This document shows positions 14,501 to 33,042 of a stretch of 64,000 nt of DNA, one piece after another. The position numbers and the translations under genes are program-made. The DNA is from an uncultured delta proteobacterium (GTDB lineage Bacteria; Desulfobacterota; Binatia; Binatales; Binataceae): contig CAWEEQ010000004.1 in assembly GCA_963808235.1 (NCBI GenBank), positions 2,112,001 through 2,176,000 on the forward strand. The letters are read 5' to 3'. Numbering within the stretch: the first letter of the stretch is position 1; each line of letters opens with the position of its first letter. The notes beneath the pieces were generated by a model. The model saw only the letters and a list, made by a program, of their open reading frames with translations, searched no databases and had not been told where the DNA came from.

Positions 14501-15231
14501 AAGCCGGTTTCCGTGAGGTTGCGAAATCCGACCAGAAAGTGCGGTTTCCGTTTTGGGAAGTCCTCTCCGAGGTACAACTGAGCGTGGTCGATCACATTCG
14601 CGGAGACTGGGCACGTGCTCTGTCGCATGTGCAGGCCTCATCCCGCCCCGACCCTGGGATGAGTTCAATCATCGGACTCGCCGAAGGCGCGCTCTTCAGG
14701 CAGATGGCTTACGCGGGCGAGCGCGCCGGTGCGTTGGCTATCTTTCGTGAAAAGCGCGCACTGCTCCCTGGTAGCGGCCATCAGAACCTTAGAGGTTCGT
14801 GGTGGATGCTCGCGCTGGTAGTTGAGGGCCTCGTGATGCTCGGCGAGCAATCGCAAGCGGCGGAGTTCTACCCACTGGTTCGAGAGTTGGTCGCAACCGG
14901 TGCGGTAGCGCTGTGGCCGATCTCACGTTTGACGCAAACGATCGCGGGTATCGCGGCGGCAGCCGCTCATGAGTGGAGCGCCGCTGAAGACCACTTCAAG
15001 ATTGCGACGCAACAGGCTGAGTCATTTCCGCAGCGCCTCGAACTGGCGGAGATCAGACGCTTCCACGCGATGATGTTGATCGAGCGCGGCGCCCGAGGCG
15101 ATCGCGAGAAAGCGCGAACGCTGCTCGTCGAATCGCTTGACACCTACACGCAGATTGGCATGCCCCGCCATATCAAGATCGTTCAGGCTCTGCTCAACCA
15201 GGCGAGTGTCCGAATCAGTTCGACCGGCTAG
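11596..15231 (+). CDS. STAND-like AAA ATPase with N-terminal putative DNA-binding region and C-terminal TPR-like region
   Basis: FVGRESE, Walker A GGPGVGKS, Walker B LEDLHWAD, GYPFF, FAHELVR; likely start ATG 11641. Confidence 0.88.
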   Translation: MVPLEFLSNPSGTNPMARETWSARSGSAGIVDLGPTAGAGQNEKGVFRKEGEYWTVGYGGKTFRLKDTKGLGYLAHLLRHPSVEFHVLDLAGGIASQREEDETIASAHGLPRGAEDLEKTGIHIASLGDAGEMLDEQAKSAYRRRLSELQEELEESKELGNVERAEQTEQEIDALTSELSRAVGLGGRNRRAASASERARQSITKTIKAVLDRIAQSDATLGSILSRCIKTGTFCSYLPDPDFPIAWEFEAIEPAEQPTFSVSNAPAPVESHGDAAHSAPAVLGVSPFSLAERTAFVGRESERGVIRAAIDRALEGHGSLIMLGGGPGVGKSRLAMEMGEYASRVGFRCLVGHCYERDEPFPFLPFAEILESSLAQAASRDEFRRRMGENAPELAQIAPSLRRAFPDIPQPLELPPAQRRRYLFQSVSEALGRASRTRSQLHILEDLHWADESTLGLLIHLANRVAQLPVVIIGTYRDGYSEHNSALVRTLEELIRMGTRPLKLGGLSRDAVAEMLHGLSRGRAPENLVSLIFEESQGYPFFVEEVYRHLVEEGKVFDAAGQFRTDIKIDDLDVPENVRLIIGRRLERFDESEKRVLAAAAMIGRSFSFRLLTAVSQIDVDDLFTVIEKAQQMGIIVASSQGPETPFTFAHELVRQTLLGRISAPRQQQLHAGVADAIELVYPRFVNERAGEITDHLLKAGSFADERRLVRYLTLAGKNALEAAAFEESRRSFKSALSYQGTRDPREKAELLVNLSAAELSLERWDAVLANLREALEIYTHLEDREMIGRSFVRLTNVLIWVGRFREAAETGRRGLDYLKGEVSATRGRLLAALGQAIAANGVCESATDALQEALNIASQLSDTKLEARVLGARSIVNLHFFRLREAAADGLLSEQLGGSELNPWQRALQLRVLHQTLVALGRVEEAIEIADQLEPLATRIGQAYSIALCLSTRTWLEFGKELDLAKLEAGFREVAKSDQKVRFPFWEVLSEVQLSVVDHIRGDWARALSHVQASSRPDPGMSSIIGLAEGALFRQMAYAGERAGALAIFREKRALLPGSGHQNLRGSWWMLALVVEGLVMLGEQSQAAEFYPLVRELVATGAVALWPISRLTQTIAGIAAAAAHEWSAAEDHFKIATQQAESFPQRLELAEIRRFHAMMLIERGARGDREKARTLLVESLDTYTQIGMPRHIKIVQALLNQASVRISSTG

Positions 15232-16351
15232 ATCCGTCGAACCGTAGAACAGCATACTTTGCGATGAGTCGCGCTGGTCGCAGGAAGTAGTACAAAAAAT
15301 ATAACGCGGGGGGAAGTTGCAAGGCTTTGTAATCGGCCCAGGAAGGTGCGAAGTGGCCGAGCAGGTAGCGCATACGATGTGGCGCTGACTCGAAAAGCCG
15401 CAAGCAGAAAGGGATTAACTCGGACTCCGGAGTCCGAATAGGCGCGCCTGCCAGCACCCGGTTTCTCACCTGCCGAACAAGTTCATCTACCGCGGTATCG
15501 GCAGGCAGCGTCAACGGCAGCGCGACCCCGAATAGATCCTCCGACAGCTTCAACCCAAGCAAAAGCTCGCGCATCGTGCCGGCGCGAGTCGACGCGGCTA
15601 TCACCTCGGGCCAACGCAAATTCGGAAAGGCGATCGCACATGATGCGACGTCGCAGATCCAGCCGAGGCGTTCGAAGGCATGCTTGGACCCGTGCGCGCA
15701 CAGCAACAGCAGTAGATGTTCCGGACACAGGAGTGGGATCGTGCGGCCGCAGAACGCAGTCGACACGAGCGATCGCCACACTACTTCGTGATCGAAAGGA
15801 CTCGCAAAATAGCTGGGCATGATCCGCCAATGCAGGTCCACGAAGTGGGAATCATCGACCAGCGAGATTTCCGCTTCTCTGCCGCGAAGAAAAGCAGAAT
15901 CGCACGGCCAGTGCAGAGGGCTTGCGACCCGGTAGCCTCGGGCGGTCAAAACGTCGCGGACTCGCAAGACATCGCGCGGATGAACCAGCCAATCGAGATC
16001 TGCGGAAGAGCGCATCGACAGATCGCCATAAAGTTGCTGACTCAGCGCGGGACCTTTCAACGGAACGAAATCGATCTCGTGTTCCTTAAACGATTCGGCC
16101 AATCTGCAGAGCTCTGCACTGAGTGCCAGGTTCCACCGGGTATTCTGTTGGAACGCCAGGCGAAGATTTTCCGCGGCGTGCGGCGGTATCGGGACCGATC
16201 CAAGCGCCCGGTAAAGCATCGGCGTAACGGCATGGCCTGACGAAAGGCGCATCAATTCGGCCCAGTCGATCCCGCCCGGGTCCGGTGGCGGATCTTCAGG
16301 ATGAAAAAACCGGCGCAATGCCGCGACCAGAAATTCGCACTCCCGGCTCAC
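15215..16351 (-). CDS. Nucleotidyltransferase family protein (NTP_transf_5-like), lasso cluster tailoring enzyme
   Basis: LKGPAL..Y....R.SADLDWLV, VDLHW and LCAHG.KH motifs; GTG start overlaps the ABC stop codon. Confidence 0.88.
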   Translation of the reverse strand: MSRECEFLVAALRRFFHPEDPPPDPGGIDWAELMRLSSGHAVTPMLYRALGSVPIPPHAAENLRLAFQQNTRWNLALSAELCRLAESFKEHEIDFVPLKGPALSQQLYGDLSMRSSADLDWLVHPRDVLRVRDVLTARGYRVASPLHWPCDSAFLRGREAEISLVDDSHFVDLHWRIMPSYFASPFDHEVVWRSLVSTAFCGRTIPLLCPEHLLLLLCAHGSKHAFERLGWICDVASCAIAFPNLRWPEVIAASTRAGTMRELLLGLKLSEDLFGVALPLTLPADTAVDELVRQVRNRVLAGAPIRTPESELIPFCLRLFESAPHRMRYLLGHFAPSWADYKALQLPPALYFLYYFLRPARLIAKYAVLRFDGSSRSN

Positions 16352-18159
16352 TGGAGGTTTTGGGCCGACCACCACATCGCGTAGCGTCCTCCTCGCGCGA
16401 TCAACTCCTTGTGCGAACCCGATTCGAGCACGCGCCCCTCTTCCATCACGTGAATCTCGTCGGCAAGCATCGCGGTGGTGAACCGATGCGTAATCACCAG
16501 GGCGGTGCGTCCCACTGCAAGATCGCGAAAGCGCCGCAACCAGTCAGCCTCGGCCCACGGATCCATTGCGCTGGTCGGCTCGTCCAGAATCAGGATTGGA
16601 GCCTGCCGCACAAATGCCCGCGCAAGCGCCAGCCGCTGCCACTCGCCCACGCTCAACTCGACGCCCTTGTCGAACCAGTGACCGAGCAGGTTTTCATAGC
16701 CGGCGGGAAGGCGGCGGATGAAAGTCTCGGCGCCGGCAGCCTCCGCGGCGGCGCAAATCAGCCCGTCGTCTCCCATCTTGGAAAGATCGCCCAGGCCGAT
16801 GTTCTCGCGGACCGAGGCGTTGTAGTGGACCGGCTGCTGGAACAACACGGTGACCTGCTGACGAAGCTCGTCGACTGCGAAGTTCCGCAAATCGGTCCCG
16901 TCGATTGTGATCGAGCCGGTCTCGGGATCGTAGAATCGGCACAGCAACTTGACCAGGGTACTCTTGCCCGCTCCGTTGGGACCAACGATCGCTACCACCT
17001 GGCCCTTGGGCACAAAGAGCTCAAAGTCGTTGAGCGCCAGACGTTGTCTGTCTGGGTAGCGAAAACAGATGTTTTGAAAACGAATACCCTCTTGTAGCTG
17101 GCGCGGAACCGGAACCGGCGAAACTGGTGAGATGACTCGCGGCACGAGCTCCAGGAATTCGAACAGGTTGCCGAGGAAGAGCGTGTTTTGATACAGCTCG
17201 CCGACGTTTTGCAAAAGCTCCCGCGCAAGACGCAAGCCTTGCTGAAACGCCTGATACAAAAGCGCCAGATCGCCGAGCGAGAGCTGGCCGCGCAGCGTCC
17301 TGAAAACCATCCAGACGCATGCTGCCGCGGTCACCGCCAGCGTGGACGCGCCCGCCAGCAGCTCCGCCAACCCCTGCGAGCGAGCCAGGTTGATGCGCTT
17401 CTCGCGCAGGAACTTACGCAGCTCGCGATACGCGCCCTCAAAGTAATCTCCCAGCGCAAAGAGGCGGACTTCGGAAGCGTGTTCTCCCGACGTGAGAATC
17501 CAATCGTAATACCAGATTCGGCGTACCACTGGGGTCGTCGTCATGCGAAGCTGGTGCTGCACGACGGCGTAGCGAAGCACCACGGCGAGCGCCGGGATCG
17601 TGCTCAACAACAGCGCCACCGGAAGCCAGATACCGAAACCCGCCAGCACCGCGAGCATCGCGGCAAGTGTGACGCCATTCTGGACCACGGTGCCAAGCTT
17701 TTCGACCAACACCATCGGCCGGCTGCCGGCTTCATCGCGCGCGCGATGGAGATGGTCGTAAAAATCGGGCGATTCGTAAAACGCCAGATCGGCGGCAATC
17801 GACTTGCGGTGAATGAGTCCCGAGATGTGGTCCTGCACCAGCTCGGCCTCGGCAGTGCGGGCCCAGTTGATCACGCCACCCAGCAACTCGGAGAGCAGCA
17901 GCACCATCGCCATCAAGAGCGCAGGCCAGAGCATCGGCCGCCAGTTGCCTCCGGAGCGGACCCCGGCGACAATTCCATTGACCAGGGGCCGGGTCAGATA
18001 AACCGTCGCGACCGGAAGAAATCCTTGAACGAGAAGCAGGGCGGTCCAGATGATGGTCCAGCCGGGCGCGGCTCGCCACACGAGGAGGATCGCGCGAGAG
18101 AGATCAGTCAGCAGAAGCGCCGCGCGACGAAAGCTGATGACAGCAGAGTATTCTGACAA
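16348..18159 (-). CDS. ABC transporter, fused permease/ATPase (peptide exporter, lasso D-like)
   Basis: TM domain, GPNGAGKST, LSVGEWQR, ILDEPTSAMD; no C39 peptidase domain. Confidence 0.93.
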   Translation of the reverse strand: MSEYSAVISFRRAALLLTDLSRAILLVWRAAPGWTIIWTALLLVQGFLPVATVYLTRPLVNGIVAGVRSGGNWRPMLWPALLMAMVLLLSELLGGVINWARTAEAELVQDHISGLIHRKSIAADLAFYESPDFYDHLHRARDEAGSRPMVLVEKLGTVVQNGVTLAAMLAVLAGFGIWLPVALLLSTIPALAVVLRYAVVQHQLRMTTTPVVRRIWYYDWILTSGEHASEVRLFALGDYFEGAYRELRKFLREKRINLARSQGLAELLAGASTLAVTAAACVWMVFRTLRGQLSLGDLALLYQAFQQGLRLARELLQNVGELYQNTLFLGNLFEFLELVPRVISPVSPVPVPRQLQEGIRFQNICFRYPDRQRLALNDFELFVPKGQVVAIVGPNGAGKSTLVKLLCRFYDPETGSITIDGTDLRNFAVDELRQQVTVLFQQPVHYNASVRENIGLGDLSKMGDDGLICAAAEAAGAETFIRRLPAGYENLLGHWFDKGVELSVGEWQRLALARAFVRQAPILILDEPTSAMDPWAEADWLRRFRDLAVGRTALVITHRFTTAMLADEIHVMEEGRVLESGSHKELIARGGRYAMWWSAQNLQ

Positions 18160-18203
18160 TCCGTTTATGCCGTGCGCTACTTGACATATTATACCGGCGC
18201 ATA

Positions 18204-19763
18204 GTGGTCAATCTGGAAGCCTCTGAGATTCCACCAGCTGGATTTTCGGCGCCTCGGTCGCGATACGCCGATTGGACCAAATGGAATCCGTTGCCTTGCG
18301 CCCTCGCGGTGCAGGCTGCGCTCCTGTTTTACCGCCTCGATCTGCTCGAACCGTGGGGCGACGAATGGTTCACTCTCACGATAGTTCCACAGCCGTTGAA
18401 CCAAATCCGCGCTGTCGTCGAACGAGTCGCCCATCCGCCGCTCTATTTCTTCCTGCTGCATTTCTGGATTCAACTTCCGTGGCCCGCAAGTCCGCTCACA
18501 AAGATGCGTGCGATGTCGGTCCTGTGGACCTTGCTAGCCACCGTAATTTTAGACCGGCTGTGGCTGATCGAATTGGAGCCGAGGGTGCGGCGAATGTTCC
18601 TTTCGCTATGGGTACTATCGCCTTGCCTGCTGCTCTACGCGCGGATGGCGAGGTCCTACAGCATGCAGTTGGCGCTGGCACTGCTCACGATCTACGCCGC
18701 GTCGAAATGGCTGGCTCGGCCGCAAAGTTTACGATGGCTGCTGGCGTATAGCTGCTCTTTGGTCGCGCTTCTATACACGCACTATTTGCCGGGCTTGGCG
18801 ATTATGGCATCAGCATGGATGTTATTACTTGCAAAGCCGGAGTTGTCGCCGAAGATCCGCATGATGATCGCCGCTGCGCCGATTCTGGCGATCGCGCTCT
18901 TGTACCTATCGGGGCTAACGTTTCCCTTTCTGGCGCTTGGTGCGTGGAGAGCTTCCACCACGTATCGTGTAGGAAACCCGTTCGTCGATCAGCTCGTCCG
19001 GTTCGCCTATTGGTTCGTGTCGTTCTGCTTCGGCGAGACGATTTCCGCGCTCAGCATCGTACTTGGCGCATTACTGACGCCCGCGATTGCGTTCGCGTTG
19101 TATCGCGGTGTGCGGTCGCGACCGGAATGGATGAGCCTCCTTGCCGTGGCTTCCCTGGTCGGTTACATCGGAGTGAGTCGATGGACCGGGTTCCCGTTCA
19201 CACCCGCCCGGGTTCTGTTCGCATTGCCTTTCTTTCTGATCCTGCTGGTGAAAGGAATTGATGCGGGCGCGCGCGGCTCCATCGTATTCGCGGGTCTTTT
19301 GGTCGTATACATTTCCGGCGACTATAGCTACTTCGCAAAGACCGGCTACTTGAACAAGGCGTATTGCGTGCCCTACCAAACGATGGCCGACGTTATCGTC
19401 CGCGACTCACCAGTCAGCGGCGCCGTGCTCCTTGTCGATGGATACAGCTCCGTCCCTGCCCCATTGCTGATTCGGTTGGGAAAAGGGATCAGAGTGATCT
19501 TCCTTGACGACGAACAATCGGCCGAGCCCGAAGTGGAGACGGTCCGGCATCAGACGGGCATCATATGGTTCTGGCGCCACACCAACGATACTTCGCCGGA
19601 CAAATTTGTCAGCCGCCTGGAAACGGATTTGGCTCAGGGCAGGACTGTGAAGGAATACGACTATCTCCCCTACTCGATGCCCGAGCGTTGGATACTGCGC
19701 TTCCTGCGTGGTCCTGGACAGCCCAATTACTTTTACCAGCTATCAGAGCTGAAGCTGGACTAA
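18204..19763 (+). CDS. GT-C fold membrane glycosyltransferase (GT39/PMT-like)
   Basis: WGDE in the first loop, HPPLYF, ARMARSYS, LYTHY; multiple TM helices. Confidence 0.8.
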   Translation: MVNLEASEIPPAGFSAPRSRYADWTKWNPLPCALAVQAALLFYRLDLLEPWGDEWFTLTIVPQPLNQIRAVVERVAHPPLYFFLLHFWIQLPWPASPLTKMRAMSVLWTLLATVILDRLWLIELEPRVRRMFLSLWVLSPCLLLYARMARSYSMQLALALLTIYAASKWLARPQSLRWLLAYSCSLVALLYTHYLPGLAIMASAWMLLLAKPELSPKIRMMIAAAPILAIALLYLSGLTFPFLALGAWRASTTYRVGNPFVDQLVRFAYWFVSFCFGETISALSIVLGALLTPAIAFALYRGVRSRPEWMSLLAVASLVGYIGVSRWTGFPFTPARVLFALPFFLILLVKGIDAGARGSIVFAGLLVVYISGDYSYFAKTGYLNKAYCVPYQTMADVIVRDSPVSGAVLLVDGYSSVPAPLLIRLGKGIRVIFLDDEQSAEPEVETVRHQTGIIWFWRHTNDTSPDKFVSRLETDLAQGRTVKEYDYLPYSMPERWILRFLRGPGQPNYFYQLSELKLD

Positions 19764-19769: not shown

Positions 19770-21500
19770 TTGACCTTGTCCCTATCTGACCGCCCTCTTC
19801 TGAAGCACCTACTGCCCGTGAGCGCGTGCGCCACGGCCTTGCTCGCGCTGGGCCTGACGCCGTATGTTGTCACTTGGCTCTCAGGATACGGCTTTTTATG
19901 TCCTACCCAGGGCGACATGCCGTACTACCTGCAGTTAGCCGCGCAGCCTTACTACAATCACTCTCTCTACCTTAGCGATCCTATGATCCAGGGTGGCCCT
20001 ACGTTCTATCCCTGGCTTCAATACATACCGCTGGTCTGCTTGACCCGATTGCTAGGCTTACCGATCTTTGCGATTCAGGTTCTGTGGACAATAGCGGCCG
20101 CGCTCGGAACGAGTCTTACACTCTACTTGTTGCTGTGGCTGGTCTGCCGAAACAGATGGCTTGCGGCAGCTATCACGATTTGCGCCTGGGCCGACATCGA
20201 CTTGGGTATGAACAGGATCGCCCACCGGCCCTTGTTCATACACCAGATCTACCTGGTCGCTTCCGACTTGATCGCGCACCTGCGGGGGCATCGCCTGGTG
20301 GACAGGCCATGGTTTCCCTGGCAATGGCGACTTACCAATCCGGCGTTGGACTTCCCGTTCCTGTTTCTTCAGTTGATCGCGACTTCCATCGCTCGCGAGC
20401 ATCCGAACCGGCGCAACCTCGTTCTTTCCGGCTTAGTCCTCGCGCTGACGTTCTATATCTATTTCTACCTGTGGACGATGATAGCCGTGGGGCTCGGCCT
20501 GGCGATCCTGGTCGATCGGCCCGGCCGCCGGACTTACGTCTGGACGTTGGCATTGGGATTCGCGCTCGGATGGCCGCAGATCGCTCATGATTACCTGGTC
20601 AGAAGTGCATCGTCGGCCGAGGGGCTGAGATATTTCGGGCTAACTACCGACCGCTTGACTACTCTGTCTAAATCTTCTCCATATTTTCATCCTTACCTGG
20701 TTATAGGTGAGCTGGTTATTCTCGGTGTCTGGATTACCCGTCGAAAGGTCCCCTCTCTCGTTCTGACGTGGTGCATTACTTGCGCCGGCGTGGGCCTCTC
20801 ATTGGTTAACTTTGTGACAAGTGTCTATCTGCACAACTACCACTGGTCATGGCTGGTCGCTCCGCTCATACACATTCTGATGGTAGCTGTCGCGCTCGAC
20901 CTGATTATGCTTTGGAAACCGAGGCTGCAGATACCTGTTTGGGTGGGCGCACTATTTGTCTGCGCATTTCTGGCCAGCGGAATCTATCTCACAGAATCCA
21001 CCCTCACGGTCGTCGACTACGACGAGACCACATCACTTTACTCTGAATATGTTCGCCAAAGACTTTCGCCCGGAGTAACGCCTCTTAAGCCTGGCGCGGT
21101 GATTGCGGGCGAATGGAACGTCGTCGATCTCGCCGCGATCGCGGAGCGACAGAGGCCGCTGCGCGGGCGATTTCTGGATAACAACGTGCTCCTTGACGAC
21201 AAGGAGCGGCGAGACCGGTTCGTCCTCGATCACTATCTATCTGGAATCGACACCCACGACGACTTCGCAGTTCGATTGAAGGAGTACTTCTTTATTCCCC
21301 ACCCTCAACTGCCAGCCTATCTGCACACCTTCGACGAAGTATCTCGCGATCCGGACCGCTTCATCGATGATCTTAAGGTACGCTACCTCGTGCTCCCAGC
21401 AACTCAGCCTATCCCGAAGTCCCTGAGCCGCAGGTGGAATCTCATCCAGCCGGGTCCCTACTTCCGGATTTGGGAATGGACTGACAGCGCTCCGAAATAA
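19770..21500 (+). CDS. Polytopic membrane protein, probable GT-C-like
   Basis: GDMPYY acidic first loop; many TM helices; C-terminal periplasmic region (LKVRYLV). Confidence 0.6.
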   Translation: MTLSLSDRPLLKHLLPVSACATALLALGLTPYVVTWLSGYGFLCPTQGDMPYYLQLAAQPYYNHSLYLSDPMIQGGPTFYPWLQYIPLVCLTRLLGLPIFAIQVLWTIAAALGTSLTLYLLLWLVCRNRWLAAAITICAWADIDLGMNRIAHRPLFIHQIYLVASDLIAHLRGHRLVDRPWFPWQWRLTNPALDFPFLFLQLIATSIAREHPNRRNLVLSGLVLALTFYIYFYLWTMIAVGLGLAILVDRPGRRTYVWTLALGFALGWPQIAHDYLVRSASSAEGLRYFGLTTDRLTTLSKSSPYFHPYLVIGELVILGVWITRRKVPSLVLTWCITCAGVGLSLVNFVTSVYLHNYHWSWLVAPLIHILMVAVALDLIMLWKPRLQIPVWVGALFVCAFLASGIYLTESTLTVVDYDETTSLYSEYVRQRLSPGVTPLKPGAVIAGEWNVVDLAAIAERQRPLRGRFLDNNVLLDDKERRDRFVLDHYLSGIDTHDDFAVRLKEYFFIPHPQLPAYLHTFDEVSRDPDRFIDDLKVRYLVLPATQPIPKSLSRRWNLIQPGPYFRIWEWTDSAPK

Positions 21501-22684: not shown

Positions 22685-22856
22685 TCAAGTATTGTCGGAA
22701 GTGTGGGTCCCGTCGCCAGTATCCTGCATAGTGTTTCTGTGCATCATTTTGGTGATGGACCCTAGATCGCCGTAGACTTGTACCTGCGGTTTGCCATACG
22801 GCTTCTTTCCTTCAGGGCTCACTGCTCGAGTCGTCCTTCTGATCTTCCAAAACCAT
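22685..22856 (-). CDS. Lasso peptide precursor A2 (leader ...KKPYGKPQVQVYGDLGSITK, core MMHRNTMQDTGDGTHTSDNT)
   Basis: Hand-translated; YxxP..G....T(-2) lasso leader motif. ATG 22856 needs a 1-nt correction, but an in-frame GTG at 22822 gives an intact 45-aa ORF. Not in the ORF track. Confidence 0.9.
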
Positions 22857-25008: not shown

Positions 25009-26858
25009 TGCGAATTACGCGACTCAGCGGAAAGAGCCCGCGAGGAACCCTTCACCTTTTCCGGTTTGTTGGCTGGCAGCGCCCCGCTTACGACCTGCTG
25101 ATAGAAATTCTCCAATGCCACGACACTTCGCTTGTCCGAATAAAGTCCCTGCCAGCCGGCGACCAGACGTTGAACGACGCGCTCCCGCCATTCCCGATCG
25201 AGCCCAAGATTGACGGCGATCTCAACGTAGTCGGATTTGTCGCGCGCGATAGTCTCGGTCACTCCGAGCTGGGTCAGGATGGCATACGAGTGCCGGCCGC
25301 GCATGAACCTTCCCGGCAATGTCACCACGGGCAACTTGCATGCGATCGCCTCGAAGGTGGAATTGCAGCCGGACCATTCGATGTTATCCAGAAAAATGTC
25401 GCAGAGAGAATTGAGGTTCCAGTAAGTGATCTCGTCAACGGTTGGTACGAATACCACGCGGTCGGCAATCGGCACTCGGGCCGCGGAAAACGCTTTGTCG
25501 AGTCTTCGCTGGAAATCGTTTTTGAGCGCCTCGTTCCACGCAATGAAAACAAATTGCGCGTCCGGTACTCGCTTTGCGATCGCCGGGAACACGTCATCGT
25601 GTTGCGGCAGATACTTGATAGTCGACTGGCATGACAAGTAGGCGATAGCGTCGTCCCGAATCCCAAAATCCGCTCGCGTTTTGTAAAACAAAGCTCTGGG
25701 AATCACCGGCTTCCGGTAACAGATGCCGATACCGGGCAGAGAAACCAACTTTTCAGTATAGAAGCTCTGCGCGCCCTCAGGCTCCATCAGATCACTCGAC
25801 AAAAAGTAGTCGATCGTAGGCAGTCCCGAGGTCATGGGATGGCCCCAGGTGGTGCATTGGATCGGAGCCAGGCGCAGCGCTCCCAGTTGGGTCATTCGCG
25901 GATCCATCCCGATGTCCAGGAAGACCAGGACATGTAACTGATCCGAGAGGATCGCGCGGCAGGTCTCTTCCAGATCGCCCGCCAGGTGTCGGAAGCGGAA
26001 ACTTGCGCGCCGCGCATCCTCGGTCCGGCCGTCTGCCTCACTTCCGAGGTAATAGGAAAAAATCTGGAATCTGTCTCGACTGTGTTCCTCGAGCCATCCC
26101 AGGTGATCCTTGGCGACGCTATGATTGCGCAAATTGGCCGAGACGTAACCGATGCGCAGCTTGCCGTCATCCGGCGGCATTCGAAGCCGCTGCACCCAAT
26201 CCGGATAGTTCGCCGCCATGATGCGATGCGCGACGTCGCCGTACATCGCCTGGAGTGTTCGGTCATCGTGCCCTTGGTACGCGAGTTGAAAATTAACGTG
26301 ACGTTTGAGTCCCGCCAGGCAACTCTCCCTTTCCTCCGCAGTGTCGAGGCGCAGTCCATCCGCGATTTCGCGTAGACCTTCGGTGAACCGGCAGCGGTAC
26401 CGCTCAACTTCATCCGAATCCGAGTACAACATCGGCAGGAGCAGTCCCTCCTGGAGCTTGAATAAGAAATCGGAAGGAAACTTCGCGCGCGCAGCCCGAA
26501 CTATTTCAAGGGCGTCCGCGGTGCGATTGCTGTCTTCCAGGAGCCGGATGCATCGCCGATAAAGTTTCACCGGCGCCGCGCACTGCTTGATCCCCGTTCG
26601 AAGCGTGTCGATCGCGGCTTCGTACCCGCCAAGCGCCTCCTGACATCGCGCCGCCTCCATGTAGGCTTCCGGATCCCGATCGCGAACTCGCAACTCTGCG
26701 CAAGCCTTCTCCAACGCCGCCAGGTGCGCTTTGTGCTCTTCGACTTTGAACGATTCGCACTGTTGCCTGAAGATGTCTTTCACAGAATTCAATTGCAAAA
26801 AACTCTTCTCATGCAGTGCTGGAAATCTTTTCGTCGCTCGCGCGACCGCCATCGGCAA
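25005..26858 (-). CDS. TPR + GT41 glycosyltransferase (O-GlcNAc transferase/SPINDLY-like)
   Basis: N-terminal TPR-like helices; LRIGYVS..LRNHSV, RLAPIQCTTWGHPMTSGLPTIDYF, DIFLD..WSG.NST.EA...LPVVTLPG..MRGR. Confidence 0.9.
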   Translation of the reverse strand: MPMAVARATKRFPALHEKSFLQLNSVKDIFRQQCESFKVEEHKAHLAALEKACAELRVRDRDPEAYMEAARCQEALGGYEAAIDTLRTGIKQCAAPVKLYRRCIRLLEDSNRTADALEIVRAARAKFPSDFLFKLQEGLLLPMLYSDSDEVERYRCRFTEGLREIADGLRLDTAEERESCLAGLKRHVNFQLAYQGHDDRTLQAMYGDVAHRIMAANYPDWVQRLRMPPDDGKLRIGYVSANLRNHSVAKDHLGWLEEHSRDRFQIFSYYLGSEADGRTEDARRASFRFRHLAGDLEETCRAILSDQLHVLVFLDIGMDPRMTQLGALRLAPIQCTTWGHPMTSGLPTIDYFLSSDLMEPEGAQSFYTEKLVSLPGIGICYRKPVIPRALFYKTRADFGIRDDAIAYLSCQSTIKYLPQHDDVFPAIAKRVPDAQFVFIAWNEALKNDFQRRLDKAFSAARVPIADRVVFVPTVDEITYWNLNSLCDIFLDNIEWSGCNSTFEAIACKLPVVTLPGRFMRGRHSYAILTQLGVTETIARDKSDYVEIAVNLGLDREWRERVVQRLVAGWQGLYSDKRSVVALENFYQQVVSGALPANKPEKVKGSSRALSAESRNSQ

Positions 26859-27790
26859 GGTCGGCGAGGATCCGGGCGCGAACTTCCGGAAGCAGCGCGA
26901 GGTCTCTTGGATACGAAATTCGTTTCACTGGCACTTGAGAGGCCAGCTGCCGCGATTTCGAAAATAGTTGCTGCAGACGTTCGCGGATCAGTCATCACGC
27001 TATTAAAAGTGTGGCGAATCAGTTCGACTAGCGCCTCGCGCTGAGAAAGCGTGGCGATCTGGATGCGCTGCTTGCGAAAGACCTCGCGCGGACCGCTGAG
27101 CACATAAACGGTGTGCAACGGCACCGGACTGGCCTGGTGGTGATGCTCTCCGAGCGGCAGTACCAGCTTCTCCGACCAATCGTTCATGCGCACGCCCTCG
27201 CCGCTCAGACCCAGGCAGCGGCGCGCCACCCACGGGAACACCTTGATTCGAGGTGGACCCGGCTGTGCCTCAAAACCGCCCGACGACTTTTGCGATACCA
27301 GCAGCAGATCGTCGGTGAGCAGCCGATGCCCATCGCTTAGAAATGTCGCCGCAAGCGAGGACTTCCCGAATCCACTCTCGCCAACGAATGCCAGCGCGTC
27401 CCCATCCAACACAACCGTGCTCGAATGAATCGGCTCAAAGCCCTGCTTCACCAGCGCAAACGACAGCGCGCGCCCCAAAAGGTAGACCTGCAACGATTCA
27501 CGAGACTCCGCACCGAGCCACCCGAACCAGATCCGGCGTCCGTCGCCATCCACCACGAACTCACAAAGGCCATCCCAGCGCAGGTAGACCTGATCATTGT
27601 CGAGGATAGCGTACTCGTACTGACGGTACGCGGCGGACTTCAGGAGCGCATCGCGACTCTTCTCACGAAAGAAGCTATCCGATTCGCTGAGCAGGTCGAC
27701 GTCCGGTTCCCCGATCGGGGAACCTTCCGCGAAGGAAAGCTCGACGTCGCTTCGCAGACGAATTCCGTAGATTTCATAGCGGTGCGTCAT
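26809..27790 (-). CDS. HPr kinase-like peptide kinase; +1 frameshift near 26980
   Basis: IHSS.V, P-loop GESGFGKSS, LLTDD; corrected C-terminus RLQQLFSKSRQLASQVPVKRISYPRDLALLPEV. Confidence 0.85.
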
Positions 27791-28074
27791 CAGGTGATCT
27801 CGACCAGCCCCTGCTCCGCCAGCTGTTCCACCAGGTCACGGATATCGGCCTCGAGTTGCGCCGCCTCGACATCGTATTCAGCCTGCAAAATGTCATGAAT
27901 CTGCCCGAGAGTCATCGGCTCCTGGATCAGCTGCCAAACCCGCGCGCCCACCGGATCGAGGCCGTAGTAAACGCTGTTCTTGAGATTCAGAATGGCCGCC
28001 TCGCCCTCCAGATCGCACGAAACCTGATCTTTTGACGCGATAACACGTGACTCGATCCCAAGTTTTACGGCCAC
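27790..28074 (-). CDS. PqqD-family RiPP recognition element (lasso B1/E), copy 1
   Basis: DLEGEAAILNL...YYGLDPVGARVWQLI...EYDV...LVEQLAEQGLV. Confidence 0.92.
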   Translation of the reverse strand: MAVKLGIESRVIASKDQVSCDLEGEAAILNLKNSVYYGLDPVGARVWQLIQEPMTLGQIHDILQAEYDVEAAQLEADIRDLVEQLAEQGLVEIT

Positions 28075-28188: not shown

Positions 28189-29373
28189 TTACGTAGCGAT
28201 CTTCAGCAGCCCTTCCTGGATTAGGCGCCGAACCAGGACGACCTTGGACTGCTCGGTGAGCATATCGGGCAGGTCATCGACCCGGAACCGCTCGTGTTTC
28301 GCAACGAATTCCAACGCTTCGGCTATACTTGGAGGACCGCTCACGACGCGCGTACCGAACTCGATACTCGCATTCGAATTCGTTCGGGTTACCCGGATGC
28401 TCCAGCCGAGGCGTCGGACCACCTCGGTGTGAGCCGCTATCGAACGTGCTCGCTCGATCGCGTTGAAATGAGGCTCCGGCGACGTCCGAAATTCGCGGCT
28501 GCGAGCGCCCGCGCATCGCGTCATCGCCTCCATCGCAACCTCGCGTCCCTGTACTGCCTTAAGAAGCGACGCGAACTCGCGCCCAATCTCGTCGGCTCGC
28601 GATTCGTCGCCCGGCGTAAACGACGGAACCGCATGGCGGAAAAGCTCGTTCCGCTCCGCGACGACGCGCAGACCCGCTTCCAGCAGATCGAGCCATCGAA
28701 GCGGGAAAATTCCGATCGTAAGATGCATCGACGGAACTTCGGTTCTCACCGCCTCATGGATGAATCCTCGCGGCAGATAAACAATTTGCCCCGGCTCCGT
28801 TGTTACTTCGAGGACCGGCGTGCCTAGCTCATGCTCCCCGCGTTTCACCACGGTTTCCTGCGGCTCCAGCGGCAACAGGTACTGCGGAGCGTAAACCCGC
28901 CATGACTTCCGACCCTCGAGTTGCAGGATGATCACGTCGTGCGAGTCGGCGTGCGCCGAAAATCCCTTCGCTTCCGACGGCGTGCAGTAAAGATTCACCG
29001 TGACCTTGTGCCCGATATCGAGCGCGACACCGCTCGCCAGCCGCGCCACCGGAGTGCTCCGCCGATGCAACTTGTGCACGCCGATACTCCAGCCCTTGGC
29101 GTAGGCCCGATAGATCGCCGACATGTCGGGGAGCCCGTCCGGCCCTCGCTCGACGGAGTACGACTCGACCCCGTAAGCATCGGACCGCACCATGTAGTCC
29201 TTCGAGCCTGACTCCTGCGCCGTCGTATGATCGAGGATCGCATCGAGGTCGTCGAACGTAGGCATGTCGCGGCACCAATCGGGCATCGGCCTCGCCACAT
29301 AGAGCGGCCGCTTCTCCCAGTACTCGGACCAGAACGTCGCGAGAGAAACCGGATCGATTAGCTGCTGCAACAT
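28189..29373 (-). CDS. JmjC/cupin 2-oxoglutarate-Fe(II) oxygenase (NO66/YcfD-like)
   Basis: FWSEYWEKRP, NLYCTP....GFSAHAD (HxD), QLEGRKSW, YLPRGFIH (distal His); C-terminal winged-helix-like LVRRLIQEGLL. Confidence 0.9.
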   Translation of the reverse strand: MLQQLIDPVSLATFWSEYWEKRPLYVARPMPDWCRDMPTFDDLDAILDHTTAQESGSKDYMVRSDAYGVESYSVERGPDGLPDMSAIYRAYAKGWSIGVHKLHRRSTPVARLASGVALDIGHKVTVNLYCTPSEAKGFSAHADSHDVIILQLEGRKSWRVYAPQYLLPLEPQETVVKRGEHELGTPVLEVTTEPGQIVYLPRGFIHEAVRTEVPSMHLTIGIFPLRWLDLLEAGLRVVAERNELFRHAVPSFTPGDESRADEIGREFASLLKAVQGREVAMEAMTRCAGARSREFRTSPEPHFNAIERARSIAAHTEVVRRLGWSIRVTRTNSNASIEFGTRVVSGPPSIAEALEFVAKHERFRVDDLPDMLTEQSKVVLVRRLIQEGLLKIAT

Positions 29374-29441: not shown

Positions 29442-29834
29442 TCACTTCCCCGCCTTCACGTATGCCTCGAGCGGCGGCGTCTTGGCGACGTGTCTAAGAT
29501 CGCGCGCGTTGGACAGTCCTTCGGAAAGCAAGTCCTCATCGCTGATCTCGACCCTGCCGTCCGCGCGCTTCGTGGATACTGACGCGGGCGGCAAAACCAG
29601 GTGCACCGAGTCCGCCGACGAAAGATGAACTTCGAGCGTCGTCTCAGCCGGTATGACGATTCCACACCGCCGCTCGAACACCTCTCTCGGATTCTTTTGC
29701 AGCTCGCGCGCAAAGTCCGGATTTCGCATCGCCTCGGTAAGCATCGCCACCACTCGCGAGCTCCGCATCGAGGCCGGAATCGACAGCACGCAAGCGAGCA
29801 CGAGCTGCACTTCGAGTTTGGGCTGCTCGCCCAT
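29442..29834 (-). CDS. NHLP (nitrile hydratase-like) leader peptide family protein, 130 aa
   Basis: AMRNPDFARELQKNPREVF...G..IP...LEVH....HLVLPP...EISDEDL; ATG overlaps the upstream TAA (TAATG). Confidence 0.72.
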   Translation of the reverse strand: MGEQPKLEVQLVLACVLSIPASMRSSRVVAMLTEAMRNPDFARELQKNPREVFERRCGIVIPAETTLEVHLSSADSVHLVLPPASVSTKRADGRVEISDEDLLSEGLSNARDLRHVAKTPPLEAYVKAGK

Positions 29835-32173
29835 TAGTCCTTGCTCATCGACGAGATATCGCGAAAAATCGTGACCGAATTGGCCGGAGCATAACATGCG
29901 ATTCCGCTCGCTGTACAGGCTCCTTTTGCGTGCGCGGGGCTGGCGACTGCCGAGGTTCGAATCGCGCCGAGAGCTTGCGGCGCAAACACCATTAGCAGCA
30001 GTTGCGGTGATGCCGCCCCGCCGTCCAGGTGGCCCACATATTGGGCAGGATAGGGAAAATAGATTTTCTCCGCGATGCTGCCATAGTTCGAAAGCACCGA
30101 GCGCAATCCCTGTGGCGTGCCGACGACGCCGATCGCTATAGCTCCATCATCCCACGGCCCCAGCCAGATTCCGGCGGTCGTGGCCGCAAACTTGGGCGCC
30201 GGGCCCAGCTCCTGTGCGAGCCGGTACCTGAGCGGGACAGTCCGCATGATCCACGATACAATCCGCTGGAACGAGGCTCTTCGGCGGATCGCGCTGATTG
30301 GCCAGTAGCCGTACACCTGGGATCGAGGTTCATCTCGCACCACTTCCGGCGGCAGCCCCATCGATGCGGCCTGCACCGGGCTGAGCTTGTCGAGCGGCTT
30401 CCCCGAAGCAAGGTAACTTTGCGCGGCCCCAAAGAGCATCCGGAAGCGGAGCAGGTTGTAGCGCGATTCCATCTCGTCCGCCCCCAGACTGCGATACGGA
30501 GCGAGACTTTCGCGGTCGATGCGGTAGAGAAAAACCCCGCCGACGTCGACTCGTTGCGCGCTTACCGTGGAGACCAGACGGCCATAGGCGGCATAGTCGC
30601 CCTCTTTGACGACGATCGCGCTGACATCGTGATCTGCAATGAACGCTTTGAACTGGTCCTCATAACCGGGGATATATGGTGCGTCCTTGTTCAGAGCGTC
30701 GACGATCGGCCACGCCTGGAACTCGTGCGGCACGATCCCGAGCAGCCCTTGCGGCATCCGGAAGTAGAACTTGCTGGACGACTGCCAGAGCATACAGTTG
30801 CCGCTCTCTCCGTAAGGCAGAATAAGCACGGTCTCGTCGCGCTTTAGATAGTTCGCGTAAATCCCGTCGCGAAAGAATTCCGGTAAATCCGCCTTGCCGA
30901 TCCACCGGCTGAACGGGATCGCGGGCATCAGCGAAACAACTACCGCGCCGGCCAGCAGCCACCGGAGTGGACTCGGCTTGCCGGCCGGTTCTGCTTCTGC
31001 CAGCCACAACGCCACGATCAATCCTCCCACAAGGAACGCGTACATCATGAACCGGGCCGGCAACGCATTGTTCAGGATCGGTACCGGCACCGCCCAGATC
31101 CATAGCCACGGCGCGACCCCGAAACCGCTCACATGCAGAACCGGCCCGATCGAGGCGATACAGATCAGAGCAAGCATCGCGGTCAGGTAACGGGCTAGAT
31201 CGCGTCGAGGCGATCGCCAGAGAAACAACGCACCGAGCACGGGCAGCAGGCCAAGGTAGCCGGCTGCCTCTTTGAGATCGTCGTTGCGAATCGTCACCGC
31301 GTTCAAGGAAGGGAGCCAGGCACCCATCGCACTGACCCCGGTGGGAAAGAAAAAATTCAGCAGATCGGTCGAGCAATGCGCCGGGTTGTAGATCGGAAGC
31401 CAGTCATATTGCCTGGCGAGGAACCTGACCAGGTATGGCGACAGAACCACGATCGCAACGCCGTAAGCGATCGTCAGCGAAACCGCCGCCCTCTTGAACT
31501 CGGCCATGTTGATCTCAGGAAAAAATCGCCGCGCCGCTACTATTGCCAGCGCGCCGAAGATTGTCGCCGTAGCAAAGATCTCCGGAGAAAGGAGGAACTG
31601 AAAAACCAGGCAAGCCGCGAACCACATTACAAAGGTGATGCGCCCCAGGCGCCCATGCCAATGCAGCAGCACGAGCCACGGCAGAATCGGAATGACGAAC
31701 ACCAGGACCAGGTCCAGATGCCCGGTGAGCTGCTCCTGCATATACGGAGAGAAGCCGAAGATGCCTCCGCCGATTAGCGCTGGCCAGAACGCGCCGGTGA
31801 CATAGCGGTAAAGGACGAATGCGGTGAACGAAGCGAGGATTGGAGCGAGCAAGGTGAGGACGTTGTAAGACGCAACCACGCCCACTATACGGGTCAGCGG
31901 CCAGGCGGCGAGACTCGCACCGGGAATCGTGGTTGCCCATGCCAGATTAAAGCCGCTGGGAGCCCACACCACACTGGTTTCAAGCGGGACTAGGCGATGG
32001 CTGATGGCGTGCGGATACCAGGCCAGGCCCCACATGTAGATTTGTGGCTCCCCCGTATAACCGCCGAAGCATGAAGTTGCAAAGCCCCGCGCTATCAACG
32101 GGGTTCCGAAAATGCTCACCGAGAGCGCGGCGAAGATCGCAAGCGCGCCGAGAGTAGTCAGGAGTTTCCGCAT
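29834..32173 (-). CDS. Polytopic membrane protein, YfhO/GT-C-like
   Basis: N-terminal TM bundle (WAP.GFNLAWATT, FGFSPY, GHL, GYLG, PARFM) and a periplasmic C-terminal region. Confidence 0.7.
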   Translation of the reverse strand: MRKLLTTLGALAIFAALSVSIFGTPLIARGFATSCFGGYTGEPQIYMWGLAWYPHAISHRLVPLETSVVWAPSGFNLAWATTIPGASLAAWPLTRIVGVVASYNVLTLLAPILASFTAFVLYRYVTGAFWPALIGGGIFGFSPYMQEQLTGHLDLVLVFVIPILPWLVLLHWHGRLGRITFVMWFAACLVFQFLLSPEIFATATIFGALAIVAARRFFPEINMAEFKRAAVSLTIAYGVAIVVLSPYLVRFLARQYDWLPIYNPAHCSTDLLNFFFPTGVSAMGAWLPSLNAVTIRNDDLKEAAGYLGLLPVLGALFLWRSPRRDLARYLTAMLALICIASIGPVLHVSGFGVAPWLWIWAVPVPILNNALPARFMMYAFLVGGLIVALWLAEAEPAGKPSPLRWLLAGAVVVSLMPAIPFSRWIGKADLPEFFRDGIYANYLKRDETVLILPYGESGNCMLWQSSSKFYFRMPQGLLGIVPHEFQAWPIVDALNKDAPYIPGYEDQFKAFIADHDVSAIVVKEGDYAAYGRLVSTVSAQRVDVGGVFLYRIDRESLAPYRSLGADEMESRYNLLRFRMLFGAAQSYLASGKPLDKLSPVQAASMGLPPEVVRDEPRSQVYGYWPISAIRRRASFQRIVSWIMRTVPLRYRLAQELGPAPKFAATTAGIWLGPWDDGAIAIGVVGTPQGLRSVLSNYGSIAEKIYFPYPAQYVGHLDGGAASPQLLLMVFAPQALGAIRTSAVASPAHAKGACTASGIACYAPANSVTIFRDISSMSKD

Positions 32174-32302
32174 CCTCTCCCGGCACGGGCGTCTCTAGTG
32201 ACACGGGCGGGCATTTCCTCCGTGTAGATACCGGGTGCAGGGGTCACCCCTGCCGCCAGCCGCGCAGGCGTGACCAAGATTCCTATGCGAATCGCGCTCC
32301 CA

Positions 32303-32758
32303 TCACTGCGCGAGGGGATCCCGCGCAGTCAACGGCACAAACTGATCGAGTTGAAAATCCCCAATCACCACGCTGCCGCCACTCTCCAGCCATGCGTGCG
32401 CTTCAAGCCGCCCACCCGCCGGCTTCATGACCCCGATCTTCAGCTCGGCCGGATAACCGTAACGCTTGAGCACGATGCCCGTCGCGAGCGCTCTTACCAG
32501 ACAGTTGCCCGCCCCCGGCACGACCCGGCTGAGCGCCGCGACCGCCCACGCAATCCTGCGCGCCGTCGGTAGTGGCACAGGCGTTCCTGCCCGTGATGTG
32601 CGCCGCACCGGCCGGCTCATCGCGTCGGCAATCCGGTTCACACGCTCAAACGGCATCGTCCACATCGCGATGCGCATCGCAACGATCGGCGCGATCGTGT
32701 TCAGTACGAGCGTCCGATCCGATCGATTAAGAACTATGAACTTGCCAATCCGGCTCAT
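32303..32758 (-). CDS. Lasso leader peptidase (B2, transglutaminase-like)
   Basis: NCLVRALA catalytic Cys, LKIGV, AHAWLE catalytic His; ATG overlaps the RRE stop. Confidence 0.92.
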   Translation of the reverse strand: MSRIGKFIVLNRSDRTLVLNTIAPIVAMRIAMWTMPFERVNRIADAMSRPVRRTSRAGTPVPLPTARRIAWAVAALSRVVPGAGNCLVRALATGIVLKRYGYPAELKIGVMKPAGGRLEAHAWLESGGSVVIGDFQLDQFVPLTARDPLAQ

Positions 32759-33042
32759 CCCGTGACCTGGATAAGCCCACGTTCTTGAAGTGCGCCCAGC
32801 AACTCGATCAACTCCCCCGAGCATCGCTCCGTTTCAACGTCGTACTGCGCCAGGATCGCGTCGCGAATGTCAACCACTCGCCGCGGCTGCGCGATCAGGT
32901 TCCACACCGTCGCGCCGACCTGGTCAAGTCCGAAGTAGGTGCCAGTCTTCAATTCCAGGATCGCTGCTTCGCCGGCGAGATCGCAGGAAATCTGATCCTT
33001 CGATGCGACCACTACGGACTCTTGCGAAATTCGCCTTTTCAC
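32755..33042 (-). CDS. PqqD-family RiPP recognition element (lasso B1/E), copy 2
   Basis: DQISCDLAGEAAIL...YFGLDQVGATVWNLI; clear paralogue of 27790-28074. Confidence 0.92.
   Translation of the reverse strand: MKRRISQESVVVASKDQISCDLAGEAAILELKTGTYFGLDQVGATVWNLIAQPRRVVDIRDAILAQYDVETERCSGELIELLGALQERGLIQVTG

Follow-up and report, generated by a model that had tools for sequence, protein, structure and literature searches.

The question raised by this locus is what kind of peptide might be made by a lasso-peptide gene cluster that carries, besides its core genes, a kinase, a nucleotidyltransferase, a methyltransferase, an oxygenase and a glycosyltransferase. The cluster lies at 15215-33042 of a 64-kb stretch of contig CAWEEQ010000004.1 from an uncultured delta proteobacterium; we call this whole stretch the window. 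We identified genes by scanning open reading frames (ORFs) with Pfam and NCBIfam profiles and comparing the bit scores with the family cutoffs. By its gene families, 15215-33042 is a predicted split-B, kinase-type (paeninodin-like) lasso-peptide cluster of an uncultured soil-type bacterium. We consider it rather likely that the encoded pathway yields a tailored lasso peptide, a reading built on directly observed gene identities and order, co-occurrence counts, precursor motifs and active-site differences in the methyltransferase, from which we infer the enzymology and the product. The genes are as follows, starting from the first gene of the operon (aa, amino acids; RRE, the leader-binding element of the lasso system).

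32755..33042, minus strand: RRE1 (B1, PqqD-like leader-binding protein), first operon gene; Pfam PqqD 59.2 bits (cutoff 23.4).
32303..32824, minus strand: B2 leader peptidase (transglutaminase-like cysteine protease); Transglut_core3 90.1 bits, NF033537 95.1 bits (cutoff 33).
29834..32173, minus strand: 779-aa multi-pass membrane protein, no Pfam family; GT-C-like look-alikes in the Atlas (a lead).
29442..29834, minus strand: 130-aa NHLP-leader-like ORF; TIGR03793 34.6 bits, E 1.2e-8 (cutoff 50.9).
28189..29373, minus strand: JmjC (ribosomal-oxygenase-type) Fe/2-oxoglutarate (2OG) hydroxylase; JmjC_2 87.5 bits (cutoff 22).
27790..28074, minus strand: RRE2, second PqqD-like protein; PqqD 70 bits (cutoff 23.4).
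~26806..27790, minus strand: HPr-kinase-like peptide kinase, +1 insertion at ~26984; Hpr_kinase_C 27.2 bits (below the cutoff of 33.3).
25005..26858, minus strand: TPR and GT41 (OGT-like) glycosyltransferase; Glyco_transf_41 105.8 bits (cutoff 25).
~23200..25008, minus strand: lasso cyclase, Asn-synthase-like, +1 insertion at ~23384; GATase_7, GATase_6, Asn_synthase, NF033535.
22999..23173, minus strand: precursor A1, frameshift at ~23078; identified by precursor motifs and repeat comparison with A2.
22685..22856, minus strand (open GTG-start ORF 22685..22822): precursor A2, +1 insertion at ~22833; identified by precursor motifs.
21526..22666, minus strand: PRMT-fold S-adenosylmethionine (SAM) methyltransferase, +1 insertion at ~21910; Pfam PrmA and PRMT_C.
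19770..21500, plus strand: 576-aa multi-pass membrane protein, no Pfam family; 65% identical to its counterpart in the closest related locus, L001.
18204..19763, plus strand: 519-aa multi-pass membrane protein, PMT_2/GT-C-like (a lead); 77% identical to its L001 counterpart.
16348..18159, minus strand: ABC exporter, fused permease/ATPase, MsbA-like; ABC_tran 113 bits, intact.
15215..16375, minus strand: NTP_transf_5 nucleotidyltransferase (PsmN-type); 192.2 bits (cutoff 31.2).

On the minus strand, transcription runs from RRE1 through B2, the 779-aa membrane protein, the NHLP-like ORF and JmjC to RRE2, and then through the kinase, GT41, the cyclase, A1, A2 and the methyltransferase. The array is broken by the plus-strand genes at 18204-19763 and 19770-21500 and resumes with the ABC exporter and NTP_transf_5; all core lasso genes are on the minus strand. 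Every gene that an earlier note on this DNA had named is found here by Pfam and NCBIfam at 15215-33042 on that strand, and the tight packing that it described is real: the GT41 stop and cyclase start codons overlap (by 4 nt), the RRE2 stop overlaps the kinase start by 1 nt, and only 18 nt separate A2 from the methyltransferase gene. The TAA stop of the 779-aa gene also overlaps the ATG of the NHLP-like ORF, and both GT41 and the 779-aa gene are predicted to be translationally coupled to their lasso neighbors. Four genes had escaped the note, namely the NHLP-like ORF and the 779-aa, 519-aa and 576-aa membrane proteins, and its description of the cluster as complete does not hold for the assembled sequence, in which five key genes carry a +1 insertion. 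A promoter and terminator scan of 15000-33600 was uninformative, giving 4 promoter-like elements against 6.2 expected and 18 terminator-like elements against 16.7.

A scan of genome contigs with the cyclase yielded 595 confirmed relatives, the best 80 of which (loci L001 to L080) are used in all comparisons below. Cyclase identity is 76% for L001 (CAWHWI010000003.1) and 73% for L002, both contigs from metagenome-assembled genomes (MAGs) of uncultured delta proteobacteria, and 54% for the next locus; the remaining loci are mostly from Acidobacteriota, with cyanobacteria and several other phyla. In a quick IQ-TREE cyclase tree of 78 loci and the window, with L055 and L079 omitted as partial cyclase matches and branch support given as the SH-like approximate likelihood-ratio test (SH-aLRT) only, the window groups with L001 and L002 (SH-aLRT 100).

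The components expected of a lasso system can each be recognized in the window. B2 and a discrete PqqD-like RRE, the hallmark of split-B systems, are both present with matches above cutoff (NF033537 and Pfam PqqD). RRE1 is 79% identical to the product of L001 6166-6447, and RRE2 is 69% identical to that of L001 8702-8992 and 46-52% identical to RRE1. The cyclase begins Met-Ser-Gly, with Ser rather than the glutaminase Cys at residue 2, and its best NCBIfam match is the lasso cyclase model NF033535 (E 2.6e-112, 376.6 bits); the 3' end of its gene falls within 23145-23205.

The two precursor genes form a 315-nt tandem duplication that includes the first ~45 nt of the methyltransferase gene. Their core-coding stretches are 94% identical and, as far as read, differ only synonymously, so that an identical core is encoded. 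The open ORF of A2 (22685-22822, 45 aa, GTG start) retains the full recognition motif; an upstream ATG at 22856 is out of frame owing to the +1 insertion at ~22833. Its leader reads Y(-17)xxP(-14)xV(-12)...T(-2), where the register rule for lasso precursors given in the available part of PMC10368454 is Y-17/P-14/L-12. The A2 core is MMHRNTMQDTGDGTHTSDNT, which has 20 residues with Asp at position 9, contains six Ser/Thr residues, ends in Thr and has no Phe, Trp or Tyr in its tail.

This architecture recurs among the relatives. A leader-motif scan of the 80 loci found 83 candidate precursors, at least one of them spurious (in L041; ~82 plausible), that share the leader/core register and come from 71 loci. 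Asp or Glu occupies core position 9 in 59 of the 83 candidates and position 10 in 18 more, and [K/R]-Thr lies three or fewer residues from the C-terminus in 62. The position of this Thr differs with the presence of the methyltransferase: in 32/39 cores from methyltransferase-bearing loci, at most one residue comes after the last Thr, whereas 2-3 residues follow it in 33/44 cores from loci without the enzyme. Arg is absent from 27 of the 39 methyltransferase-linked cores but from only 3 of the 44 others, and 32 of the 39 lack Phe, Trp and Tyr after position 10. The window core, as read from its gene, ends in Thr and fits the group that carries both methyltransferase and nucleotidyltransferase. 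Met is strikingly abundant in several of the cores linked to the methyltransferase (L029, L031, L048 and the window; for example, 4/16 to 5/18 residues). A 29-member, mostly acidobacterial clade of the cyclase tree (L020, L026, L052 and L066, among others) lacks the methyltransferase and the nucleotidyltransferase; its cores are Arg-rich and typically end in Arg/Lys-Thr plus 2-3 residues.

We then counted tailoring genes across the 80 loci by tblastn with the window proteins (E<=1e-5, at least 40% coverage), a procedure that misses divergent homologs; 35 of the loci are cut by contig ends and 45 extend for 8 kb or more on each side. We detected the kinase in 73/80 loci (44/45 of those with both flanks), the nucleotidyltransferase in 30/80 and the PRMT-fold methyltransferase in 30/80, and all three occur together in 21/80 (15/45). 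Because 21 of the 80 related loci carry all three, the trio is, judged by these counts, normal equipment of a widespread subfamily. Its spread through several phyla, in 21 of the 80 nearest loci, and the way its presence tracks the position of the Thr make it look like a conserved chemical module worth characterizing. The earlier description of the tailoring set as unusually large must therefore be divided, with the trio being common and the other additions rare: JmjC was found in 2/80 loci (L001 and L022), GT41 in 2/80 (two copies in L015, and L027), two RREs in 2/80 (L001 and L019), the NHLP-like ORF together with both plus-strand membrane proteins in 1/80 (L001), and the 779-aa protein in 0/80.

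L001 resembles the window most closely. It has the same order, RRE1-B2-NHLP-JmjC-RRE2-kinase-cyclase-A-methyltransferase, then two opposite-strand membrane proteins, then ABC-nucleotidyltransferase, with 14 genes kept at 64-79% identity. It differs in having neither GT41 nor the 779-aa protein, in encoding a single precursor with a different core, and in carrying a Methyltransf_25 gene and a weak 2OG-Fe(II)-oxygenase-like ORF (E 1e-4) that are absent from the window. These two extra genes (L001 13188-13985 and 14016-14651) lie between the PRMT-fold methyltransferase and the membrane-protein genes. L002, a 21.6-kb locus, shares the run RRE2-kinase-cyclase-A-methyltransferase-nucleotidyltransferase but has no RRE1, B2, NHLP-like ORF, JmjC or ABC exporter within 10 kb on either side.

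The near-universal kinase and its partner resemble enzymes with known roles in lasso tailoring. Alignment of the L001 kinase ortholog (74% identical) with HPrK matches up the His, the GKS Lys and the DD pair, residues that can also be seen in the window ORF, which is frameshifted at ~residue 269; a His-Lys-Asp-Asp motif is described for HPr-kinase-like tailoring kinases in the available part of PMC9266682. The NTP_transf_5 protein is 77% identical to its L001 counterpart. Given these families and the roles of PadeK, PsmK and PsmN in lasso tailoring (PMC9266682, available in part), the parallel previously drawn with paeninodin and pseudomycoidin holds.

The methyltransferase is a different case. 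Members of the PRMT family are defined by a double-E loop, in which two Glu hold the guanidinium group, and by a THW loop. Against the PDB, the methyltransferase matches PRMT1, PRMT6, PRMT2 and CARM1 at E 1e-29 to 1e-22. A predicted model of the intact L001 enzyme (pLDDT 90.4) has PRMT6 as its best Foldseek match (E 3.5e-29, TM 0.68/0.78), with PRMT6, PRMT2 and PRMT1 at query-normalized TM 0.68-0.74, and consists of a Rossmann SAM domain, a PRMT beta-barrel and an extra C-terminal four-helix domain. We considered whether this extension is an RRE and rejected the idea, as the model has four helices and not the beta3-alpha3 fold of an RRE. Compared with 6cu3, the first Glu of the double-E loop is replaced by Asp and the second by Gly in the window or Lys in L001; 27 of 30 lasso-linked homologs likewise have Asp at the first position, a variable second position, and IYG/IYK in place of THW. 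We rejected arginine methylation as the activity, with the second Glu missing and no Arg in 27/39 linked cores. Thus, the "PRMT-like" label given earlier is right for the predicted fold, but arginine methylation is unlikely, because the double-E and THW motifs are altered and most of the linked cores are Arg-free. The link between the enzyme and a terminal or penultimate Thr suggests that it may act at a C-terminal appendage instead.

Taken together, these features point to the following pathway. The two tandem precursor genes would encode one 20-residue core behind a leader of the form Y(-17)xxP(-14)x[L/V](-12)...T(-2), and an RRE would present the linear precursor to the HPr-kinase-like enzyme. 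Because its position is conserved across the family, the C-terminal Thr (Thr20) is the most likely phosphorylation site; the PsmN-type nucleotidyltransferase would then extend the phosphate with a hexose or a nucleotide, and the PRMT-fold enzyme would methylate at or near this C-terminal appendage, with a target other than arginine. The JmjC oxygenase is predicted to hydroxylate a side chain, and the OGT-like GT41 may attach an O-linked sugar to one of the six core Ser/Thr residues. Methylation, hydroxylation and the possible O-glycosylation would take place on the linear precursor, before B2, working with an RRE, cleaves after Lys(-1). By linking the Met1 alpha-amine to Asp9, the cyclase would then form a 9-residue ring, and the ABC transporter would export the product. 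Because the tail has no Phe, Trp or Tyr, the C-terminal modification probably serves as the lower plug, preventing the tail from unthreading; a bulky C-terminal modification has been proposed as the plug of pseudomycoidin (PMC6993621, available in part).

Several observations weigh against this pathway. Several lasso-specific models are matched below their cutoffs: RRE1 and RRE2 score 68.6 and 68.7 bits against NF033536 (cutoff 80), the cyclase 376.6 against NF033535 (cutoff 525) and A2 19.1 against NF033528 (cutoff 33), and the kinase likewise scores 27.2 against Hpr_kinase_C (cutoff 33.3). Met is unusual at core position 1. The core ends in Thr, where the phospho-acceptor of paeninodin is a C-terminal Ser (PMC9266682, available in part), and BsfA is phosphorylated at Ser3 according to a source available in part, so the site is not to be assumed. 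Neither of the two closest relatives has GT41 or the 779-aa protein, the co-occurrence counts carry the missed divergent homologs and truncated loci noted above, and a product or enzyme activity is known for no member of the subfamily. Three signal-peptide proteins with Gly-Pro-Thr repeats, considered below, lie divergent from the operon at 33466-43256 and offer another substrate for glycosylation. Finally, the assembled sequence puts five core genes out of frame, and these lesions are confined to 21.9-27.0 kb (~5 kb), where a uniform error rate predicts otherwise. In favor of the pathway are the near-universal kinase, the methyltransferase that tracks the Thr position, and the finding that GT41 adjoins the kinase and nucleotidyltransferase in L015 as well.

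The five lesions leave open whether the cluster works. Relative to both L001 and L002, tblastn and DNA alignment place +1 insertions in the kinase (26984), the cyclase (23384), the A2 leader (22833) and the methyltransferase (~21910); that in A1 (~23078) was judged against A2, with the spacing of the A1/A2 repeat shifting from 314 to 315 at the lesion. The kinase matches L001 in two frames (residues 1-269 and 269-326), the methyltransferase is a single frame in L001 and L002, and the other cluster genes are in a single frame relative to L001. Flanking genes are full-length in Pfam, including catalase (1-382/383), AcrB (1-1020/1021), aldo-keto reductase and sulfatase. The cluster could therefore be a decaying relic in which the insertions are real and no lasso peptide is made, given that five frameshifts fall within ~5 kb while the rest of the cluster and its flanks appear intact, and that they strike every essential step, namely both precursors and the cyclase. 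But all five are +1 insertions with no deletions, no premature stops were seen in the shifted frames, the segments downstream of the shifts keep 57-79% identity to L001, and the open GTG-start ORF of A2 keeps the whole recognition motif. L001, a long-contig MAG of the same kind, has comparable breaks in another gene, its ABC gene being split into three pieces where the window copy is intact. Also, three of the five insertions lie 2 nt or less from a GATC, compared to 6.6% of window positions (binomial P ~0.005, with the threshold chosen post hoc). Insertions near GATC would fit a systematic base-calling artifact. Given only +1 insertions, the identity retained past each shift, the breaks in L001 itself and the proximity to GATC, we conclude that assembly errors are about twice as probable as decay, and we regard the relic as doubtful.

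GATC occurs 531 times in the whole window, compared to ~229 expected from base composition, and two of the insertion sites have the common context GAGATCTC. Elsewhere in the window, at 5482-6677 on the minus strand and upstream of an AcrB-type pump, an HlyD-type membrane-fusion gene is present as two ORFs (101 aa and 297 aa) with a 4-nt overlap, reflecting either a frameshift or two genuine genes.

Among the rarer genes, GT41 has N-terminal TPRs and a two-lobed GT-B catalytic domain: in an alignment to human OGT (E 2e-33), residues 212-376 and 386-601 correspond to its two catalytic lobes, and the domain that intervenes there is lacking. Its homologs in L015 (two copies, 41-42%) and L027 are the only ones found in the related loci, and L001 and L002 have no such gene between kinase and cyclase. 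L015 is a Desulfobaccales lasso locus with a radical-SAM gene (8074-9525) between B2 and cyclase, and its two TPR and GT41 genes (14439-16298 and 17393-19210) follow the kinase and nucleotidyltransferase. Asparagine N-glycosylation by an NGT-like GT41 was considered and set aside: the core has no N-X-S/T sequon, and the match to the NGT model is far below cutoff (34.8 bits, cutoff 1000).

Among solved structures, the JmjC protein comes closest to NO66 (E 1.8e-26), MINA53 and YcfD, and its iron triad, HxD (H-A-D) and a distal His, aligns with that of NO66. Bacterial JmjC_2 homologs occur in contexts resembling those of peptides that are synthesized ribosomally and modified post-translationally (RiPPs), according to the available part of a 2025 paper, and JmjC-type hydroxylases are described in biphenomycin-like clusters in a source also available in part. 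The adjacent NHLP-like ORF is 64% identical to the L001 copy, and only five further homologs (65-69% identity) were found. Its C-terminal 32 residues, which follow an acidic "DEDL" stretch, are highly conserved; its TIGR03793 score is below cutoff, and Gly-Gly is present in none of the seven aligned sequences. It is a possible second RiPP precursor or accessory protein. A complex prediction for RRE1 (37-row alignment) with the NHLP-like protein (7-row alignment) scored 0.02 against a mark of 0.32, which gives no answer either way.

The 779-aa protein has no match in Pfam or NCBIfam, including low-stringency Pfam, and no tblastn match in the 80 loci; in the Atlas it resembles DUF6311, RgtA-like and YfhO clusters (0.97-0.98). 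Neither the 519-aa nor the 576-aa protein has a Pfam family or anything useful at low stringency, and for the former 21 of 30 Atlas matches are clusters to which the PMT_2 family is assigned (45% of the listed cluster's members). Judged by these look-alikes, and as a lead only, the 779-aa and 519-aa proteins may be glycosyltransferases of the GT-C type. The two plus-strand membrane proteins keep their place between methyltransferase and ABC exporter in L001.

The extra genes allow two further readings, which are compatible with each other, with decay and with the proposed pathway. In one, two RiPP systems are co-located: a lasso system (RRE2-kinase-cyclase-A-methyltransferase...nucleotidyltransferase) and another built from the NHLP-like peptide, JmjC and possibly RRE1, like the pairing of lasso clusters with linear polyphosphorylated peptide (LPP) clusters in Bacillota. 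In its favor are the second RRE, rare among the related loci, and the lasso core of L002, which runs from RRE2 to the nucleotidyltransferase with none of RRE1, B2, JmjC and the NHLP-like ORF inside 10 kb. In L001 as in the window, JmjC has the NHLP-like ORF as its neighbor, the NHLP leader model gives E 1.2e-8 with a conserved C-terminal segment after "DEDL", and lasso clusters with two RREs serving two precursor families are described in the available part of PMC13381572. However, the match of 34.6 bits is well short of the cutoff of 50.9, the ORF has neither a Gly-Gly cleavage motif nor a [Y/W]xxP RRE motif, and its conservation is uniform along the protein, unlike that of a hypervariable core. 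The lasso pathway also requires B2, which adjoins RRE1, and in L022 JmjC directly follows a lasso cyclase and precursor with no NHLP-like ORF. A SpI-type peptidase, the LPP hallmark, is found in none of the 19 ORFs scanned. We think a second system improbable. A specifically LPP-type system was rejected, as none of those 19 ORFs encodes a SipW-like signal peptidase.

The other reading assigns GT41 and the three GT-C-like membrane proteins to cell-surface glycosylation: they would simply lie in or near the lasso operon and act on secreted collagen-like proteins or an exopolysaccharide locus, leaving the lasso peptide phosphorylated, nucleotidylated (or glycosylated through the nucleotidyltransferase) and methylated, and perhaps hydroxylated, only. 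This fits the absence of GT41 and the 779-aa protein from L001 and L002, the collagen-like genes beside the operon and the polysaccharide locus at 44-64 kb (YfhO-like, GT4, GT2, FemAB-like, Wza-like). The L022 lasso cluster is embedded in a polysaccharide locus, as are clusters in Bacilli (PMC13381572, available in part), and the GT41 members HMW1C/NGT, which match the window GT41 weakly, glycosylate secreted adhesins in the cytoplasm. Against it, GT41 is wedged between kinase and cyclase with overlapping stop and start codons, in L015 it adjoins the kinase and nucleotidyltransferase and in L027 it is close to both, runs of at least 10 Gly-X-Y repeats occur in 0/80 loci, and the plus-strand membrane proteins hold their place in L001. 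We regard this reading as unlikely, though less so than a second RiPP system, and prefer that of a multiply tailored lasso peptide. The idea that collagen-like genes are regular companions of GT41-bearing lasso loci was rejected on the same count of 0/80.

The three collagen-like genes, all on the plus strand, lie at 33466-35145, 35629-37164 and 40875-43256; each encodes a signal peptide and Gly-Pro-Thr/Gly-X-Thr repeats (Pfam Collagen, E 9e-40 to 3e-63). Between the first of them and the lasso operon, which are divergently transcribed, is a 424-nt gap, and the proteins are possible O-glycosylation substrates. Beyond them, 44128-63909 is a cell-surface polysaccharide-type locus encoding a protein of 1301 aa whose C-terminus is YfhO-like, a Kelch protein of 1071 aa, GT4 and GT2 glycosyltransferases, a FemAB-like acyltransferase, a methyltransferase, a phosphodiesterase, a Crp-type regulator and a Wza-like export protein. 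At the other end of the cluster, 11596-15231 on the plus strand encodes a 1211-aa AAA_16 and TPR protein, convergent with the nucleotidyltransferase gene and overlapping its 3' end by 17 nt. This protein scores 135 bits against a TOMM kinase/cyclase fusion model (cutoff 705.75) and may be a regulator.

A bolder proposal, which we hold to be a long shot, is that a widespread uncharacterized lasso subfamily in Acidobacteriota, cyanobacteria, Binatia-like bacteria and other phyla builds its lower plug enzymatically on the C-terminal Thr, from phosphate plus a nucleotidyl or sugar group, and caps it with a repurposed PRMT-fold methyltransferase. The lineage of the window would have recruited JmjC with a dedicated NHLP-like partner and a second RRE, and this genome alone GT41 and a GT-C enzyme, making either the most decorated lasso peptide yet or a lasso peptide and a second RiPP. 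If the cluster works, it would add up to three new types of lasso tailoring enzyme (PRMT-fold methyltransferase, JmjC and GT41). The intact relatives L001 and L003, and L008 and L010 from cultured cyanobacteria, are better starting points than the frameshifted copy in the window.

How far, then, does this cluster depart from known systems? Known lasso tailoring is sparse and comprises disulfides, phosphorylation with or without hexose, C-terminal methyl ester, acetylation, two hydroxylations, epimerization, citrullination, succinimide and linearization, as listed in the available part of the 2022 review PMC9266682. We found no characterized lasso pathway with a PRMT-fold methyltransferase, GT41 or JmjC in that part or in the literature covered, which excluded most subscription-journal papers and supplements; the single paper that joined "lasso peptide" and GT41 is, by its title, a soil-resistome study. 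The novelty that the earlier note proposed is therefore borne out to the extent that the literature held no characterized equivalent, but the lasso chassis and the kinase/nucleotidyltransferase module are already known, and the trio with the methyltransferase is common rather than unique.

The closest parallel is with the paeninodin/pseudomycoidin-type clusters (PadeK, ThcoK, PsmK; PsmN), which share split B1/B2, an Asn-synthase-like cyclase, an HPr-kinase-like kinase (a candidate in the window), NTP_transf_5, an MsbA-like exporter and a YxxPxL leader. The window differs from them in its acceptor-like residue, a C-terminal or penultimate Thr after Lys/Arg instead of a C-terminal Ser; in its additional PRMT-fold methyltransferase, JmjC, GT41, second RRE, NHLP-like ORF and three membrane proteins; and in its host lineage of uncultured soil-type bacteria, with relatives in Acidobacteriota and cyanobacteria rather than Bacillota. 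LPP clusters that sit beside lasso clusters in Bacillota are defined by an archaeal-type, SipW-like signal peptidase I accompanied by a dedicated RRE and precursor (PMC13381572, available in part), whereas the window has no SipW-like peptidase and no second precursor with a YxxPxVLxHQ leader, only the NHLP-like extra peptide. In the canucin pathway, the Fe/2OG beta-hydroxylase CanE is helped by CanB1 (PMC9266682, available in part). The window shares with it an Fe/2OG oxygenase in a lasso cluster, presumably acting on the leader-bearing precursor with the aid of an RRE, but its oxygenase is of the JmjC ribosomal-oxygenase type, and the solved structures closest to it, those of NO66, MINA53 and YcfD, belong to hydroxylases of His and Arg. 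Finally, a SAM methyltransferase gene directly after the precursor recalls the lassomycin-type C-terminal O-methyltransferases (LasF, StspM) and the aspartimide-forming O-methyltransferases. Here the presence of the enzyme tracks the C-terminal architecture of the core, and its fold differs in being PRMT-like, with a beta-barrel and an extra four-helix domain.

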